The notes below the pieces were generated by a model. That model saw only the letters and a program-made list of their open reading frames with translations. It was not told the DNA's origin and did not search any database. From Candidatus Thorarchaeota archaeon (GTDB taxonomy: Archaea; Asgardarchaeota; Thorarchaeia; Thorarchaeales; Thorarchaeaceae), in contig JAWOEX010000045.1 of the NCBI GenBank assembly GCA_046482545.1, forward strand, positions 20,069-84,068: a DNA stretch of 64,000 nucleotides, in the 5' to 3' direction. Of this stretch, positions 27,675 to 42,279 are shown piece after piece; position 1 is the stretch's first letter, and each line of letters opens with the position of its first letter. Made by a program: the position numbers and the translations under genes.

Positions 27675-27983
27675 ATGCCCGAATTCGCAGACCCTTTTTC
27701 TGGATTAGCAAATGATCGAAAACTTAGCCATTCCGAACTTGTTCGCGCAATCAGATACATGATTTCAGCCGAGTACGAGGCCATACAACTCTATGTTCAA
27801 CTTGCTGAGTCAACCGATAACGAACTGGCGAAAGAAGTACTGATTGATATTGCAGACGAGGAAAGGGTTCATGCCGGTGAATTCCTACGTCTACTCTATC
27901 ATCTTGAGCCCGACGAGCAGGATTTCTATGCGGAAGGCATAGAAGAGGTAGAAGAGGAGATTGAAGAGTTAGGACTGGAATAG
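27675..27983 (+). CDS. Small ferritin-like protein (encapsulated-ferritin-like)
   Basis: AEYEAIQLY...DEERVHAGEF half-bundle. Confidence 0.8.
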   Translation: MPEFADPFSGLANDRKLSHSELVRAIRYMISAEYEAIQLYVQLAESTDNELAKEVLIDIADEERVHAGEFLRLLYHLEPDEQDFYAEGIEEVEEEIEELGLE

Positions 27984-33350: not shown

Positions 33351-33995
33351 TTGCGTAAATGCCAAGACCCTTTCACGTTCATTCGAGAGAGAACAGGTAT
33401 GAATCCTTACAAGGAGGAATTCGATCCGCCCATTGTGAAAGTTCCTGCTGAAAAGGTGCGCTTTCCAGATATCTGTCCGGTTTGCACTTCTGAGGCAACC
33501 AACAGAATACGGGTGTTAGCTTATCCCAACAAGGAACAGTATCTACGTCCTAGTTGGAATCCCGCCCACACTCCAAGTGCGAGAAGGCGGTTAGATATTC
33601 CCACTCCTGACTCAAGGACCTTCTTGGTTCCCGTTTGTAGCGACCACTACCATACAGGAAACATTGACTGGCGCTTGAAGATAATGTGTGTACTCGGAAA
33701 TGGCATCAGCTTTTCTTTACTGTTTTTTGCTTGGTTGAACCTTGCCAATGCTCTAACGATGGAATCGAGGATTCAATTCTGGATATTCGGAGCTGGAATC
33801 TTCTTTGCGGCAACGATTTTAGCTATTCCCCTGGCATTTGGTAGGAATAAGTTGCGGAACTCTTTTCGAATCATTGGTTTCGACTCTGATGCTCAGAATG
33901 TTTGGTTTCAGTTGACAAATGATAATTATCGCGAAAGGTTCGTTGAAGAGAACGCTATGGACGCCGAGCTGGTCAACTGGGTGAAACGAGCCTAA
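33351..33995 (+). CDS. Hypothetical Zn-ribbon plus 2-TM protein
   Basis: FPDICPVC ... VPVCSDH; two TM helices. Confidence 0.6.
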   Translation: MRKCQDPFTFIRERTGMNPYKEEFDPPIVKVPAEKVRFPDICPVCTSEATNRIRVLAYPNKEQYLRPSWNPAHTPSARRRLDIPTPDSRTFLVPVCSDHYHTGNIDWRLKIMCVLGNGISFSLLFFAWLNLANALTMESRIQFWIFGAGIFFAATILAIPLAFGRNKLRNSFRIIGFDSDAQNVWFQLTNDNYRERFVEENAMDAELVNWVKRA

Positions 33996-34083
33996 TTTGG
34001 ATTAAGGATTTTGAGAAGGAGTTTCCTACCTGTGGATTAAAAAGGGCGATGTGGCCGGTACAGGCCACATCGTACCGTTTGTT

Positions 34084-34473
34084 CTACTTGACTTTCAGCT
34101 CTTTCTCGTCTTTCCAGAGTCCATGTATGTTGCAGTAACTGGTCGCAAGCAACTTACCCGGCTTCTCTGTCTTGAAAGCGAACGCAGCATACGGTTCACA
34201 GTATACAGTACTCGTGTCTGCTCCCTTTACTGATGCACCATGTGAATCGAACGATACATAGCCGATTTCATACGGGAAATTCTCGCCTTCAGGCCAGAAG
34301 AAGAGGTCTGCCCACTTTATGTGGTGTGCTGTTGTGTTCGGGTGAGGGATTTCCTTGCCCACCTCTATTGTGACATGCACAACTTCTCCCTTTTTCACCG
34401 CATCAGGAGCATCAATCACCGGTACATGCTTTTCGTTCTTCCAGTCGTCACTTTGTAGCCAATTCCTATCCAT
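34084..34473 (-). CDS. sor: Superoxide reductase (neelaredoxin type)
   Basis: EKHVP, HPNTTAHHI, YCNIHGLW. Confidence 0.93.
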   Translation of the reverse strand: MDRNWLQSDDWKNEKHVPVIDAPDAVKKGEVVHVTIEVGKEIPHPNTTAHHIKWADLFFWPEGENFPYEIGYVSFDSHGASVKGADTSTVYCEPYAAFAFKTEKPGKLLATSYCNIHGLWKDEKELKVK

Positions 34474-34633
34474 TTTGTCCCAACCTCAAGGGTCACATTT
34501 ATGATATGACCAACGTAAATAACTAACGGGGAGTTGTTAAAATCCTTCCCTTATCACAGTAATCGCACCTTCTGGGCATGGTCAACGAAATGCTAGCTAT
34601 CGGTTAGCCTGCGACGCCAAAGTTCCCGAATCA

Positions 34634-36124
34634 TTATGGCTTTTCTTCGAACCCCCCTAGCTTTTCAAGCGACCATTCGCCCTTTTCTGTGAGGGTGTAG
34701 TACTTCGTCTTGCGTGCGGCTTGTTCCATTTTCGTTGACGTGAGAAGCCCCTGTTCTTCCAGCTCTTTTAGGTGCTGATAAACTGTCGCCACGCGAATCT
34801 CAATTCCAAATCGCTCTGCGAGATCCTTCCAGAGCTGGTATCCGTATGATTCTCTTTCTGAAAGGAGTTTGAGGATTGAGAGTTTGGATCTTCCCAGCTT
34901 AGTGGTGAATTTCCGGTGCTCAACCTGATTGAGGATATTGCGGAGTTTTCGTTCTCCCTTGACCAGTTCTCGTGCCACTTCTGGGTATTTGAGCCCCATG
35001 CCTGTGATGACACAGACCACCGTTGAGTCACCCCCTATGATATCATCTTCACAGAGTTGTCGCAATGCAACCAGTGTTGTCGCAGAAGCAGGTTCTGCAA
35101 ATACGCCCTCCTTCTTGGCAAGTTCTCCTACTGCAGCAAGCATGTCCTCGTCCGGCACTGAGAGAGCGAGCCCATCTGATTCCTTGAGTGCCTGAAGTGC
35201 AAGCTTTCCACATGAGGGATTCCTCATACTGATGTCCATTGCCACCTCCGATACTCCAGCTGGCATCTCAATGTGTTCTAACCCCTCTTGAAAGGCGTTA
35301 ACGATTGGTGCACATTCCTCAGCCTGTGTACCCACAAGCCGAGGGAGTCTCTCTATGAACCCAAGTGTATGTAGCTCTTTCAGCCCTTTCCAAATCATGG
35401 AAAGATGCCCGCCGTTTCCCATAGGGACAATCAGCCAATCGGGCGTTGACCATCCTAGCTGGTCACTGATTTCGTATCCAGTTGTTTTGAGCCCCTCAAG
35501 AAACCACGGATTATCGGGCCGCAATATGCGGCTATGATTTTCTCTGGATTTTGCCTTCCTCATCGCTTCTTTATGGTTTCTGGATACTTCAACTTCGGCG
35601 CCAAAGGCTATAATCTGGTATAACTTGCCCATGTCTATGCTCCTATCACGTGGCAAATGGATTATTGGACGGATTGCAGCTCTGGCGCCATAGGCTACCA
35701 GTGATGCGGCAAGGTTTCCGCTAGATGCACAATGTATCGATTTGAACCCAAATTCGCGGGCGACAGATATCTCAACTGCTGCCCCTCTGTCTATGAACGC
35801 TCCAGTAGGATTTGTTGTTTCATCTTTGAGATACAGCTTTGCGCAACCTAAGCTACTGGCAAGCCTTTCAGAGGTATGAAGTGGAGTTCCTCCTTCGCCA
35901 AGGGTGACGATTTCACTTCGCTCTGATAAGGGAAGCAGTTCATGGTACTTCCAAACGCTTGCTGGTCTACATAGTATGTCTTCTTTCTGCAAAACTTGTC
36001 CGATATGGTTCAAATCATAGCCAACCTGAAGAACTCCACCGCATCCACTACAGTGAGTAACCATGGACTGGGCATCAAACTCGTCTCCACACTTCGTGCA
36101 TACTAGCCTCGACACAAATACCAT
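34634..36124 (-). CDS. Threonine-synthase-like (fold II PLP) protein lacking the Schiff-base Lys, fused to a C-terminal PadR-type wHTH
   Basis: N-terminal Zn ribbon, TLGEGGTPL, NPTGAFIDRG (canonical FKDRG), SSGN, PMGNGG, EPASA; C-terminal ILKLL...YGYQLW...VYQHLKELEEQGL...KYYTLTEKG. Confidence 0.85.
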   Translation of the reverse strand: MVFVSRLVCTKCGDEFDAQSMVTHCSGCGGVLQVGYDLNHIGQVLQKEDILCRPASVWKYHELLPLSERSEIVTLGEGGTPLHTSERLASSLGCAKLYLKDETTNPTGAFIDRGAAVEISVAREFGFKSIHCASSGNLAASLVAYGARAAIRPIIHLPRDRSIDMGKLYQIIAFGAEVEVSRNHKEAMRKAKSRENHSRILRPDNPWFLEGLKTTGYEISDQLGWSTPDWLIVPMGNGGHLSMIWKGLKELHTLGFIERLPRLVGTQAEECAPIVNAFQEGLEHIEMPAGVSEVAMDISMRNPSCGKLALQALKESDGLALSVPDEDMLAAVGELAKKEGVFAEPASATTLVALRQLCEDDIIGGDSTVVCVITGMGLKYPEVARELVKGERKLRNILNQVEHRKFTTKLGRSKLSILKLLSERESYGYQLWKDLAERFGIEIRVATVYQHLKELEEQGLLTSTKMEQAARKTKYYTLTEKGEWSLEKLGGFEEKP

Positions 36125-36147
36125 GTATCTAACATCCTTGGTTAGTG

Positions 36148-36174
36148 CCTATATATAGGTAGAAACTTATATAT
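36148..36174. promoter_or_regulatory. Overlapping palindromes in the divergent promoter
   Basis: CCTATATATAGG (36148-36159) and ATATATAGGT-AGAA-ACTTATATAT (36151-36174). Confidence 0.4.
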
Positions 36175-36279
36175 TGTTCTTTCAGAGAGTATAGTATGCT
36201 CAAAGCAATTGAACCGGTTATGGTGATGTAAGAAATTGCATTTCCGGCCCGATTGGTGTTCCACAAACTCCCTAGATAG

Positions 36280-36849
36280 GTGCAAACTACTATGGAATCG
36301 AACGAATATGCTCATGCCAGTAGAACAGTCTACCTAGCAATCATGGCCATACTAACAGCTCTCACAACAGTTGCTACAGCTGTGTTTATTATTCCGTTCC
36401 CCACATCAACGGGCTATCTGAATTTTGGTGACATACTTGTTATGATCAGCGGTATTCTCCTTGGACCGGTTGGAGCGTTCTTTGCTGGTGGTGTCGGTTC
36501 CGCCACCGCAGATGCGGTAATGGGTTACATACCCTTTGTTCCTATTACATTGGTAGTGAAAGGCTGCGAAGGAATGACTGTTAGTCTCATATCCCGGTTT
36601 CGAGATGGCGGTAGCAGTCTTCGCATTTTGGATGTAGTCGCTCTTATTGCCGCTGCATCTGTCATGTTAACCGGCTATCTCCTCGGTGAAGTTTTCATAA
36701 TTGGATTGACTTGGGAAGCAGCGTTTCTGGAATTGATTTTCTTGAATCTGCTTCAAGTCATAGTAGGTGCCATAGCTGCGGCCATTATCGGTCCCATTAT
36801 CAGGAGATATCTTCACCAAGAAATAGGGAAGCTGGAAATCAGTTGGTAA
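36280..36849 (+). CDS. ECF transporter substrate-binding S component
   Basis: IMAILTALTTVAT..IIPFP.STGYLNFGD...GGVGSA.AD...Y..F.P.TL.VKG.EG pattern. Confidence 0.85.
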   Translation: MQTTMESNEYAHASRTVYLAIMAILTALTTVATAVFIIPFPTSTGYLNFGDILVMISGILLGPVGAFFAGGVGSATADAVMGYIPFVPITLVVKGCEGMTVSLISRFRDGGSSLRILDVVALIAAASVMLTGYLLGEVFIIGLTWEAAFLELIFLNLLQVIVGAIAAAIIGPIIRRYLHQEIGKLEISW

Positions 36850-37474
36850 GAACGATTTAAGCCCCTCATAAACCTATAGTGTTTTTATTGGCGATTGTCA
36901 CCGATTCCAATGAACTTGGACGGAGCATCACAGCAATGTCTTCAAGAGATTGTATCTGAAACACGCTAGGATGGGAAGACAAGTAGAATCGTCAGTGATA
37001 TCCGATATATCGAGGGCAAGTTAGAAGATACTGAACGGCGGCTGAAGGTCTTACTTGGCTAGCGCTCGGAGTACAACTGCTTGCTTCCAAACTTGAGTCC
37101 GAAATCAATGATTTGAGAATTGAATGTGGTTTTTTTGCGCGTTGGATTATGTAGAACATTCAGATGATACCATCTGCGGTCAGAAGAAGTGTTTGAGAAT
37201 CACCACTAGCGTGGACAAGTTTATCAAAAAACCAGCTTGGGGCAGAAATCAAACCGAGTGAAATCCCAGAAGAAGCAAACCGACTTCTTGTAAACGATTT
37301 TTGGTAAAGCCAGACTGTTTTCGTGTGATTATCCCTCTTGTCCGAACCCCGCTTTGTGCCACTAGCCCCTTGTTACCATTCCGGCATAACGGCTTTTAGG
37401 ATAGTTTCAAAAAGAAGAAACGGTTATGTATTAACATGAGTTGATACAAACTGTATTGACTGGAAGTATCCCCT

Positions 37475-38752
37475 ATGGACAGACGGAAGCTGAAGATAGA
37501 CCCTAAGAGACTGGCTGAAATAAACGACCTATTGGTCAGTGAAGACAATCCCCTAGTTGATGAATTACTAGAGGTGATCGAGAAACATGGTGGTGTTGAA
37601 GAAATAAATGCCAAGGCGGAAGAAGCCAGAGAGCTTGACAATTTAATGGCCCGTCTTCGTGATAAGGACTCGCCCTTTGTAGAAGACCTTGAATGGCTAC
37701 AAAATGCACGGGACGATAGTGAGTTCATTTCTGTTCCGTCATACCGGCGTAAGGTTCTTGGTGACACATATGAAAGCATGACATTTGACGATGAACATGC
37801 AGTTACTCTTGAAATCAGTGCATGTCAGTTCTTCCCATGGGTGATACGAGAGGCGAGGAAGGCAATCGAGCATGAGGAGCTGATGCCCGGGAGATTCATC
37901 CGGGTGCGGTCAATGGAAGAGCAAGTGAAAGACGATCATGTTCTCGCCTTCGCCGCCGCGATGCAGATTGTTGGTGCTTCGTACGTTGAGACGCTTGATA
38001 CGAAGGGAACTCTACCTGGCCCTGATGGTCAGCCTGCTAACATTCATCTTGGTGGCCCTGACACGCTCACGGGCTATTTCGGTGGGGTCGGGATGCCTAA
38101 CGATTTCGCTCTGAAATGGGCCGATGAATTCTTGCACTACTATACTGAATATGGAATCAAACAGGTTCTTAATATTAACCCTGGTAGTGTACTCGTTGGT
38201 TACATGATGCACAAGCTAGGCATCGACATGGAATTCAAAATCAGTGTTTTCATGGGTAATGACAATCCATATGCTTGTTTGTGGACCCTGCTGACAGCCA
38301 AGCTGTTCAGTCGGAATGATGGAACAACTCCGCTGATAGGGTTCAACCTCAGCAATAGTGTGAACAAAGAGACCATTGAACTCGCGGCACAGATTCGTGA
38401 ACACTTCGGTTTTGGTGATGTTGTGCGCATTGAGCATCACATAACTGAGACTTACAAGGGCATTGTAAGGCAGCCCTACGATCGCCTAGACGAGCTCGTT
38501 GAACTTGCAGGTCATGTGAAGAATATCAGTGCGAAACATGAGGGTGGAATTCCGGAAGTGGATGCTGCACGAGACCATCCCAGCAACATTTTGGAATACT
38601 TTCTCAGCAAAGAGGAGATAGAAGAGCGCGGTTTGATGCCTGATTTGCTGACGAACTACTTGGATAAACATGACGCTCTCAATCGCACAGCCAAGGTGCT
38701 GACCGAAAATGGGCTCAGTTTCGTGGCGGCTAGAAACCTACATCACAACTAA
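37475..38752 (+). CDS. Conserved-looking hypothetical protein (soluble, enzyme-like)
   Basis: 425-aa ORF with Gly/His-rich motifs (LEISACQFFP, HLGG..T.TGYFGG, RIEHH, SAKHEG); no function recognised. Confidence 0.6.
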   Translation: MDRRKLKIDPKRLAEINDLLVSEDNPLVDELLEVIEKHGGVEEINAKAEEARELDNLMARLRDKDSPFVEDLEWLQNARDDSEFISVPSYRRKVLGDTYESMTFDDEHAVTLEISACQFFPWVIREARKAIEHEELMPGRFIRVRSMEEQVKDDHVLAFAAAMQIVGASYVETLDTKGTLPGPDGQPANIHLGGPDTLTGYFGGVGMPNDFALKWADEFLHYYTEYGIKQVLNINPGSVLVGYMMHKLGIDMEFKISVFMGNDNPYACLWTLLTAKLFSRNDGTTPLIGFNLSNSVNKETIELAAQIREHFGFGDVVRIEHHITETYKGIVRQPYDRLDELVELAGHVKNISAKHEGGIPEVDAARDHPSNILEYFLSKEEIEERGLMPDLLTNYLDKHDALNRTAKVLTENGLSFVAARNLHHN

Positions 38753-38812
38753 GTGATGTAGAGAGGGAATCGCTTAGTATCCCAAACTCACACGGAGATA
38801 AGTGAGTGATTT

Positions 38813-39277
38813 CTACATCCACGGTGTGATATTCTCATCGTACATCTGCTGTAGCCGATTCTTGTGGCTTTCCTCTTCCTTTGCCAAAGCTCGGAATATC
38901 GCTTTACTAGATGAATCCTCAGTCAGCTCGGCAAGAGCTGAGTAGAACTCGAAAGACGCTCGTTCGCGTTTCATTGCGACTATGAGTACGTCTTGAGGCG
39001 GGGATGACGGATTCAAGGGCACTTCTATCAGGTAGTCCTCCAGTGCGCGCTTCTCAACTTCCTCTATTGTACAGGCAAAAGTTTCACATATACCCTCATC
39101 AAGTGCCTTTTGCAACTTTTCCTTGTGGTTCTTTTCTTGTTCTGCAAGATCTTCAAGGAGTTTTTTCGATGCTGGATCTTCAGCATTTTCTACTCCATCC
39201 ATATAGAAATCGTACGCTTCTTCTTCTCGCTCGATGGCTAGATTAATCATTTTCCTGAAGGCTGCTTGGACACTCAC
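38813..39277 (-). CDS. Rubrerythrin/ferritin-like diiron protein
   Basis: AIEREEEAYDFY...EKNH and AMKRERASFEFY...EESH. Confidence 0.88.
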   Translation of the reverse strand: MSVQAAFRKMINLAIEREEEAYDFYMDGVENAEDPASKKLLEDLAEQEKNHKEKLQKALDEGICETFACTIEEVEKRALEDYLIEVPLNPSSPPQDVLIVAMKRERASFEFYSALAELTEDSSSKAIFRALAKEEESHKNRLQQMYDENITPWM

Positions 39278-40244: not shown

Positions 40245-41018
40245 ATGTCAGATGCCAAATTACTGGAAATACGGGACTTGCGGGTGGAAGTAGAAGGAAT
40301 TCCGATTCTGAAGGGCCTCGATCTGGGCTTCAGAGAAGATGGAGTATACGCCATATTGGGGCCGAATGCATCTGGAAAATCCACGCTTGCTAAGACTGTC
40401 ATGGGGTTGCCGAGCTATGAAGTCACTGGTGGAGATATTCTGATGAGCGGTGAATCGATACTCGATAAGAGTATAGACGAGCGTGCCAACATGGGCATTG
40501 CCTATGCCTTTCAAAGCCCACCCAGTATACCTGGCGTCAAGCTGGAAGATTTCATCTGTCGTGTGTGCCCGGACTACGGCTGCAAGGAACCACAAAATCA
40601 CCTTATGGGGAAGTCGTGTGCTGCACGACAGGAGCTCTATGAGAACTTCGAGCGGCTTGGTATAAAGAATCTGGCAAATCGCGACTTGAATACTAACTTC
40701 TCGGGTGGAGAGCTGAAACGGAGTGAACTGTTTCAAGTGCTATCACTCAAGCCGAGAATAATGTTCCTTGATGAACCCGATAGCGGTCTTGATTATGATT
40801 CGCTTAAGACAGTGGGTCGCGAGCTCAAGGCGATGCGAGACGAGGGAACTTCAACGATGGTAATCATATCCCACCACAGATACGTGCTTGAGTACCTCGA
40901 GGTTGATACTGTATACATTCTTGAAAATGGGCGACTCGCCTATGTTGGAGGCATGAAAGATATACCCGTTTTAGAACAGAAAGGCTACGACCGCTTCTTG
41001 GCGGAGGTTGCCAATTAG
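40245..41018 (+). CDS. sufC: Fe-S assembly ATPase SufC
   Basis: GPNASGKST, AFQ.P, FSGGELKR, LDEPDSG. Confidence 0.9.
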   Translation: MSDAKLLEIRDLRVEVEGIPILKGLDLGFREDGVYAILGPNASGKSTLAKTVMGLPSYEVTGGDILMSGESILDKSIDERANMGIAYAFQSPPSIPGVKLEDFICRVCPDYGCKEPQNHLMGKSCAARQELYENFERLGIKNLANRDLNTNFSGGELKRSELFQVLSLKPRIMFLDEPDSGLDYDSLKTVGRELKAMRDEGTSTMVIISHHRYVLEYLEVDTVYILENGRLAYVGGMKDIPVLEQKGYDRFLAEVAN

Positions 41019-41046
41019 GCTTACCGAAGAAGGTGGTGCAAAAGGG

Positions 41047-42279
41047 ATGGCAAGCGATAAGGATATCGAGAAACGCGCAAAAACAGCCAAGGACAAACGA
41101 GCGAAATACGGGTCTGATTTAGAACTCAACGAGTACGAATTCGAAGATAGGGGGAAGAGCGAGCTTGAAAGTCTGGACGCTCTGTCTGAAAATGACCGTA
41201 GCTTGGTTCAAGAGGTTGGGTTCGATCCCTCCGAACGGCAAGTCTCTGGATCATACCTGCAGATGGACAACGAGAGCATTCTCGCTGACGTGATGATGGA
41301 CCAAGAAGGTCTCGAGCTTCTTCCCCTCTCAAAGGCATTGGAACGATATGATTGGTTGTCAGATTATCTGTGGAATCTTGTTGAGGTTGATGTTGACAAG
41401 TATACAGCAGAGAGTGCATTGAAATCGTACGATGGATATTTCATCCGGGCAGAACCTGGCGCCAGAATAAAGATGCCGGTTCAAACCTGTTTGGTCTTGA
41501 AACGAAACCGGTCTATACAGAATGTTCACAATATCATACTCGCTGAGGAAGGGTCCGAAATGCACATCGTGACTGGATGTGCCACACCAACGAACACAGA
41601 ACGCTCACTACACCTCGGTATATCCGAGTTCTATGTGAAAAAAGACGCCAAGCTTAGCTTTACCATGGTGCACAAATGGAGCGAGCAGACTGATGTTCGA
41701 CCTCGCTCTGCGGCTCTGGTAGAGAAATATGGAGTGTTCCTTTCGAATTATGCGATTCTCAGCCCCCTCAAATCAATTCAGACATTTCCGAAGGTACGAT
41801 TGGCTGGAATCCATGCCAAGGCTGATTTGAACTCCGTTGTATACGGGACAAAGGCTTCGCACTACGATGTTGGAGGGGCCCTGAGCCTTGAAGCACCGAG
41901 GGCAAACGGAAAGGTCCTTTCTCGGTCCATTGCAACTGAACAGTCTCATATTACTGCTAGAGGTGATTTGATTGGTTTATCGGAAGGAACGAAGGCGCGC
42001 CTAGAATGTGATGGATTACTCCTGAGTGATGAAGCTTCCATTACAGCTGTTCCTCAGTTGCAGGCACGCGCCGAAGGTTCTGAACTCAGCCATGAAGCAA
42101 CAGTTGGCAAAGTAGGTGAAGAACAACTCAGTTACCTCATGAGCAGGGGGCTCGACGAAGAAACCGCCACTTCTCTCATAGTAAGCGGCTTTGTTCATCT
42201 GGACATCCCAGATCTTCCCGATGAACTCCAAGCATCTATAGACCAAGCGGTTGAAATGAGTCTCAAGGGCGGCATGTAA
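41047..42279 (+). CDS. sufB: Fe-S assembly scaffold SufB/SufD family
   Basis: QNVHNII, TGC, GISEFYV, ECDGLLL, LSHEATVG, YLMSRGL. Confidence 0.9.
   Translation: MASDKDIEKRAKTAKDKRAKYGSDLELNEYEFEDRGKSELESLDALSENDRSLVQEVGFDPSERQVSGSYLQMDNESILADVMMDQEGLELLPLSKALERYDWLSDYLWNLVEVDVDKYTAESALKSYDGYFIRAEPGARIKMPVQTCLVLKRNRSIQNVHNIILAEEGSEMHIVTGCATPTNTERSLHLGISEFYVKKDAKLSFTMVHKWSEQTDVRPRSAALVEKYGVFLSNYAILSPLKSIQTFPKVRLAGIHAKADLNSVVYGTKASHYDVGGALSLEAPRANGKVLSRSIATEQSHITARGDLIGLSEGTKARLECDGLLLSDEASITAVPQLQARAEGSELSHEATVGKVGEEQLSYLMSRGLDEETATSLIVSGFVHLDIPDLPDELQASIDQAVEMSLKGGM

Follow-up and report, generated by a model that had tools for sequence, protein, structure and literature searches.

The archaeal vitamin regulators ThiR and RbkR each consist of an enzyme domain joined to a helix-turn-helix (HTH). 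They govern predicted cofactor regulons for thiamine and riboflavin, respectively (PMC10746257). For vitamin B6 the closest described systems are bacterial, namely PdxR and other members of the MocR family, in which a sensor derived from a PLP enzyme is combined with a winged HTH, the gene lies divergent from pdxST and autoregulation is predicted; the PdxR and PdxQ regulons hold pdxST, pdxU and sometimes GNAT or DMT genes, and MocR factors are reported to be absent from Archaea (PMC5320631). We found no literature description of an archaeal B6 regulator, nor of a family in which threonine synthase (ThrC) is fused to PadR, in a search that most subscription journals lay outside.

Here we describe a locus in a 64,000-nucleotide stretch of Candidatus Thorarchaeota DNA (the window, to which all coordinates refer unless a contig or locus is named) from a genome of 3.05 Mb that is 98.9% complete (G000). 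We consider it likely, at a probability of roughly 0.8, that the ORF at 34634-36124 (minus strand) encodes a one-component, B6-sensing transcription factor for vitamin B6 homeostasis, its ligand, DNA binding and sign of control being those that we infer from sequence comparison. The features of the locus are:

34634..36124, minus strand: ThrC-fold pseudoenzyme plus PadR winged helix, 496 aa, a predicted vitamin B6-responsive regulator (domain search, predicted model)
36041..36100, minus strand: N-terminal Cys4 zinc-ribbon (C9, C12, C25, C28), kept in fused and unfused homologues
35000..35908, minus strand: fold-type II PLP domain PALP, residues 73-375, the predicted sensor domain (Pfam; PLP-contact positions)
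35792..35794, minus strand: Ile111, codon ATA, at the Schiff-base lysine position (alignments, contigs from another study)
35501..35503, minus strand: Phe208, where threonine synthases have the Arg that binds the substrate phosphate (alignments to 2zsj, 2d1f and 6cgq)
35408..35425, minus strand: glycine-rich PLP-phosphate loop PMGNGG (homologue alignment)
34661..34891, minus strand: PadR-type winged HTH, about residues 412-488, with an invariant recognition-helix motif YQHL
36148..36159, no strand: predicted operator, main palindrome CCTATATATAGG, the best position weight matrix (PWM) site in the whole genome
36166..36177, no strand: weaker second copy at a distance of 18 bp, which overlaps the TATA-like TTATATAT at 36167-36174 (PWM, alignment)
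36292..36849, plus strand: lone ECF S-component, PF07155, HmpT/PdxU2-like, with predicted B6-vitamer uptake (Pfam, PDB search, pocket alignment)

The PadR-like winged helix that an earlier reading of the sequence alone (hereafter the sequence-only reading) had placed at the C-terminus was confirmed by Pfam, which identified PALP at residues 73-375 (E 8.5e-65) and PadR at residues 417-487 (E 1.6e-17; 63.7 bits against a cut-off of 27), and the predicted secondary structure of the PadR region has a helix-helix-helix-wing topology. The predicted model of the protein (mean pLDDT 86.9) is structurally closest to threonine synthases (TMt 0.88 to 2zsj). Fold (TMt 0.81-0.88), identity (about 37-39%), PLP-contact residues and a Cys4 ribbon are all held in common with ThrC of the Zn-ribbon type (NF006050/PRK08197; 2zsj, 2d1f, 1uim, 6cgq), from which the ribbon was inherited. 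The nearest homologues are named Thorarchaeota/Promethearchaeia proteins. Databases label the gene threonine synthase, because the score of its product against NCBIfam NF006050, 328.4 bits, exceeds the cut-off of 303, and the Atlas holds two archaea-only clusters of identical architecture, both carrying the same label. A second NCBIfam model named threonine synthase, NF004170/PRK05638 (442 positions), aligns residues 8-488 of the regulator to its positions 3-440, winged HTH included, at a score of 303.5 (below the cut-off of 421); this enzyme-labelled model may itself have been built from members of the PadR-fused family. Contigs from RNA libraries span the regulator and S-component genes, although contig depth cannot show expression.

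Alignment to solved threonine synthases places Ile111 at the catalytic Lys, as the sequence-only reading had claimed. The position is occupied by Ile in 106 and Leu in 14 of the best 120 homologues, and by Lys in none; across the family the Ile, Leu or Val found there is written with many different codons, and the codon is likewise ATA, with 0 differences, in contigs that another study obtained from two salt-lake runs. Together with the presence of two Lys-intact ThrC genes elsewhere in the genome, these observations rule out a sequencing error or recent mutation. Among representatives at 50% identity, excluding a search set whose pattern required Ile/Leu, Lys is kept in 2/71 PadR-fused proteins as compared to 79/82 unfused ones, and orthologous fusions thus generally lack it. 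The fused proteins form one clade (FastTree, 72 sequences, support 0.895), comprising a main subclade of 62 sequences (support 0.996) with non-Lys residues only and a small sister subclade in which the catalytic residue is Arg, Lys or Ser. As judged by these alignments, the regulator cannot form the threonine-synthase Schiff base.

The cofactor site, in contrast to the substrate sites, is preserved. Residues F110, N137, G236, G238, E344 and T374, which we take to be PLP contacts from the Thermus threonine synthase, are near-invariant among homologues. The Arg that binds the substrate phosphate in the T. thermophilus enzyme is Phe in 119 of the best 120 homologues, and the Asn-Ser...Arg site of ThrC aligns here with Arg202, Pro203 and Phe208, so that the site is absent. 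At the start of the carboxylate loop, 71/82 unfused proteins have Ser in first position, whereas fused proteins show free variation there. Of the motifs that had been considered intact, SSGN (134-137), PMGNGG (234-239) and EPASA (344-348) are indeed all present in the ORF; SSGN, however, is not kept family-wide, its first position being variable. The alignments indicate that the regulator keeps the PLP pocket and has lost the substrate-phosphate site, and we infer that, in the absence of Lys, such a pocket would take up PLP or PMP without a covalent bond. Sensing of threonine or of phosphohomoserine, the latter a candidate ligand in the sequence-only reading, is disfavored. The protein thus differs from ThrC in Ile for the catalytic Lys, Phe for the substrate-phosphate Arg, a variable carboxylate loop, the fused PadR domain and the lack of any link to the thr pathway, and we do not regard it as a threonine synthase, since two defining features (the Schiff-base Lys and the substrate-phosphate site) fail.

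The divergent gene encodes an ECF S-component (PF07155, E 2.3e-30) with no EcfA or EcfT gene adjoining it at the locus, consistent with its description as a lone S-component and with a group II ECF S-component of the HmpT/PdxU type; EcfT genes occur elsewhere in the genome, two of them accompanied by ATPase genes and without an S-component within 1.5 kb. Its longest ORF begins at GTG 36280, and an SD-like AGGTG at 36278-36282 precedes an ATG at 36292, which is probably the start. The arrangement is divergent, as had been stated, and the spacer would measure about 167 bp rather than 155 bp. The sole PDB match of the S-component is 4HZU_S, HmpT/PdxU2 (E 4.4e-10), which was originally assigned to hydroxymethylpyrimidine (HMP) and is reported to bind pyridoxamine (PMC4860826). 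The residues at six HmpT pocket positions (D51, K94, E97, Y133, N156 and Q159) are all conserved sites here. Although overall identity is low, Tyr120, Asn140 and Gln143 of HmpT are identical and Glu41 is Asp/Glu, while Gln87 is replaced by Glu and His84 by Lys, the latter suggesting that the exact cargo may differ from that of HmpT. We predict that the S-component imports a B6 vitamer.

This pairing extends across Asgard and TACK archaea, as examination of the synteny of orthologous fusions revealed. In all 30 Thorarchaeia regulator loci examined an S-component gene lies within 1.5 kb, upstream on the opposite strand (in some with a GNAT gene in between), and in 80 wider Asgard and TACK loci the neighbor is an S-component in 62 and pdxS-pdxT in nine (eight divergent, one directly downstream of the regulator), related genomes not being independent samples in these counts or in those for the DNA element below. 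A PF07155 gene is also beside the regulator or one gene away, convergent, in 4/5 sister-subclade loci examined; L213, L215, L217 and L220 are such fusions (with Arg, Lys or Ser) convergent to an S-component, and a variant element with an 18-bp period lies upstream of some sister-subclade S-components. Against the proposed role, about half of the Thorarchaeia have the S-component and lack the regulator.

Other genes surround the pair. The 425-aa hypothetical protein at 37475-38752 (plus strand) belongs to no Pfam family, has at least 8000 homologues, is 60-77% identical across Asgard and is found in a Polaromonas plasmid; it is modeled as a TIM barrel (pLDDT 88) to which no solved structure is clearly related, and an Atlas feature search for it returned nothing. 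Its membership of the system is not supported, as Thorarchaeia have it after the S-component whether the regulator is present or not, and in other Asgard it lies beside genes for DapA-like, aminotransferase and oxidoreductase proteins, neighbors which suggest that it is probably an undescribed amino-acid catabolic enzyme. Between it and the S-component, at 36850-37474, are the decayed remains of a 201-aa ORF; two genomes of the same genus (L010, L011) have this ORF intact, on the opposite strand. A desulfoferrodoxin/neelaredoxin-type protein (34084-34473, minus strand) and a rubrerythrin (38813-39277, minus strand) are encoded near the locus and are syntenic across Thorarchaeia, and around it are a small ferritin-like protein (27675-27983, plus strand) and a SufC/SufB-like pair (40245-42279, plus strand), named by sequence appearance only.

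The palindromes that had been noted at 36148-36174 proved to be real and conserved among relatives. The element at 36148-36177 occurs in 42/43 Thorarchaeia genomes with the regulator versus 1/36 S-component-positive genomes without it (the lone exception being a site at a contig end), and it lies upstream in 66 of the 80 wider loci. Reversed-pattern controls gave 0 matches. That the element is AT-rich and overlaps TATA boxes counts against the proposal. Conservation of the CC/GG flanks of the element extends through Asgard and TACK lineages. In relatives without the regulator, the S-component is still preceded by the TATA half, but the palindrome is gone. A PWM scan of the source genome found one strong site and no second, and no Rfam match (riboswitch or other RNA) was found at 33900-39000.

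As loss of the element together with the regulator could mean that it is merely the regulator's own promoter, we examined distant targets. In G100, where the regulator is on another contig, the element stands in target orientation before pdxST (score 32.1) as well as before the S-component (27.3), and in G102, G116 and G121 it precedes distant S-components (22.6-28.3) while their regulators lack a strong site of their own; only 0.4% of random windows score 20 or more. In total, a distant-target element is found in 4/7 genomes whose regulator has neither target adjacent. In the nine genomes with the regulator beside pdxST the distant S-component has no element site. The presence of the element before distant pdxST and S-component genes where the regulator lies elsewhere argues that it follows the targets, and at the level of genome sequence both kinds of target, whether near or distant, bear the same DNA element. 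That pdxST is the alternative divergent partner and shares this element strengthens the guess of vitamin B6 in the sequence-only reading.

Further sites precede a gene for a DUF89 phosphatase in G028 and G052 and one for a GNAT protein in G061. In the source genome, homologues of the DUF89 and ThiL-like proteins have no element. The two Thorarchaeia DUF89/ARMT1-like damage-control phosphatases with an operator-like element (L149:140-1072, L150:4926-5834) possibly act on B6 phosphates.

PdxS was not found in any of 87 Thorarchaeia genomes, nor PdxJ in the source genome, from which it follows that Thorarchaeia would need to take up B6. Among 40 other regulator-bearing genomes PdxS is present in six, none of which has the S-component beside the regulator. 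The 87 Thorarchaeia also yielded no PdxK/ThiD-family kinase, which leaves a hole in the pathway between the imported vitamer and PLP; either the S-component brings in a phosphorylated vitamer, as the His-to-Lys change might allow, or an unrecognized kinase exists. A candidate for a non-orthologous vitamin kinase, for B6 or thiamine, is a ThiL/HypE-like AIR-synthase-family protein encoded near the regulator or S-component in five TACK loci (e.g., L113:3140-4162), which has a 40% identical homologue in the source genome at C20:105063-106055.

The missing kinase and the original assignment of HmpT to HMP (PMC4860826) are also compatible with a regulator of the same genes that senses another compound, such as HMP-phosphate or an amino acid, with an S-component that imports HMP. 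Because thiamine-related genes (ThiN/ThiD-like, ThiL-like) adjoin the regulator in a few TACK genomes (L087, L097, L101, L112), we still give this alternative some weight, at low odds. It is unlikely, however, as the element lies directly before pdxST, both adjacent and distant, and decay has affected the amino-acid carboxylate and phosphate sites but not the PLP pocket; moreover, as the ThiD family was likewise not found in Thorarchaeia, salvage of HMP has no better support. Less probable still is that the protein binds or stores B6 and regulates itself alone, the element being the back-to-back TATA boxes of its own promoter. In its favor, the element consists of TATA-like runs, lies 10-40 bp from the regulator start, would be lost on gene deletion and has only one strong site in the source genome; against it stand the sites that precede pdxST and S-component genes far from a regulator whose own upstream region has a low score, the CC/GG flanks shared by Asgard and TACK and the empty reversed-pattern controls. 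That the protein is an active threonine synthase or other PLP enzyme, with Ile111 an error or recent mutation, is highly improbable, since against its NF006050 score, its database name and the two sister-subclade fusions that keep Lys stand the 120 Lys-free best homologues, the independent ATA contigs, the lost substrate Arg and the two intact ThrC genes.

The B6-sensing regulator would thus be PdxR-like in working, and on genomic evidence its predicted action on pdxST/pdxU promoters via a conserved operator matches that of MocR/PdxR; the GNAT and DMT/EamA genes near the element in some genomes mirror the bacterial regulons. It is not a MocR protein, because fold and HTH differ: in MocR a GntR winged HTH is N-terminal to a fold-type I aminotransferase-like domain, whereas here PadR is C-terminal to a fold-type II (ThrC) PALP domain without the Schiff-base Lys, in an archaeal host and with a different operator. 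The Lys loss, synteny and element all support the proposal of the sequence-only reading that this is a one-component regulator built from a fold-II pseudoenzyme and distinct from MocR/GabR. ThiR and RbkR, although likewise archaeal vitamin regulators with an enzyme domain and HTH, have unrelated domains (ThiN; riboflavin kinase) and serve other vitamins.

In the mechanism that we propose, the ThrC-like domain would bind a phosphorylated B6 vitamer (PLP or PMP) non-covalently, one regulator dimer would sit on the main palindrome (36148-36159) and another on the weaker copy that overlaps the TATA box (36166-36177), and in the source genome both the S-component and the regulator's own gene would be controlled. 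The same TATA-like run is placed to serve a short-leader promoter of the regulator, and the position of the palindrome between the TATA and the start of that gene would imply autorepression. As to the sign of control, we lean slightly toward ligand-bound repression of uptake, since the TATA box lies partly within the second copy and relatives lacking the regulator still have the promoter. Archaeal activators bind at the BRE. Activation by the ligand-free form, as by bacterial apo-PdxR, is a possible but less probable alternative, suggested by that precedent and by the palindrome abutting the BRE.

Only tentatively, and at somewhat less than even odds, would we extend these predictions to a regulator of B6 that is general to Archaea. 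It would be the first transcription factor to derive from a fold-type II PLP enzyme and would sense B6 phosphates without a Schiff base; in Thorarchaeia, free of PdxS and PdxK, it would either control an S-component importing phosphorylated B6 via the His-to-Lys pocket change or point to an unrecognized B6 kinase. The family would fill a gap, as thiamine and riboflavin have predicted archaeal regulators and our searches found none for B6, and it would do so with a specific protein, a predicted operator and predicted targets. Its recognition corrects a widespread misannotation as threonine synthase that could mislead metabolic reconstructions of Asgard and TACK archaea, suggests what a transporter present in nearly all Thorarchaeia probably carries and shows that a B6-phosphorylation step is missing. 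If our interpretation is true, the family represents an independent, convergent solution to B6 sensing derived from a different enzyme fold.
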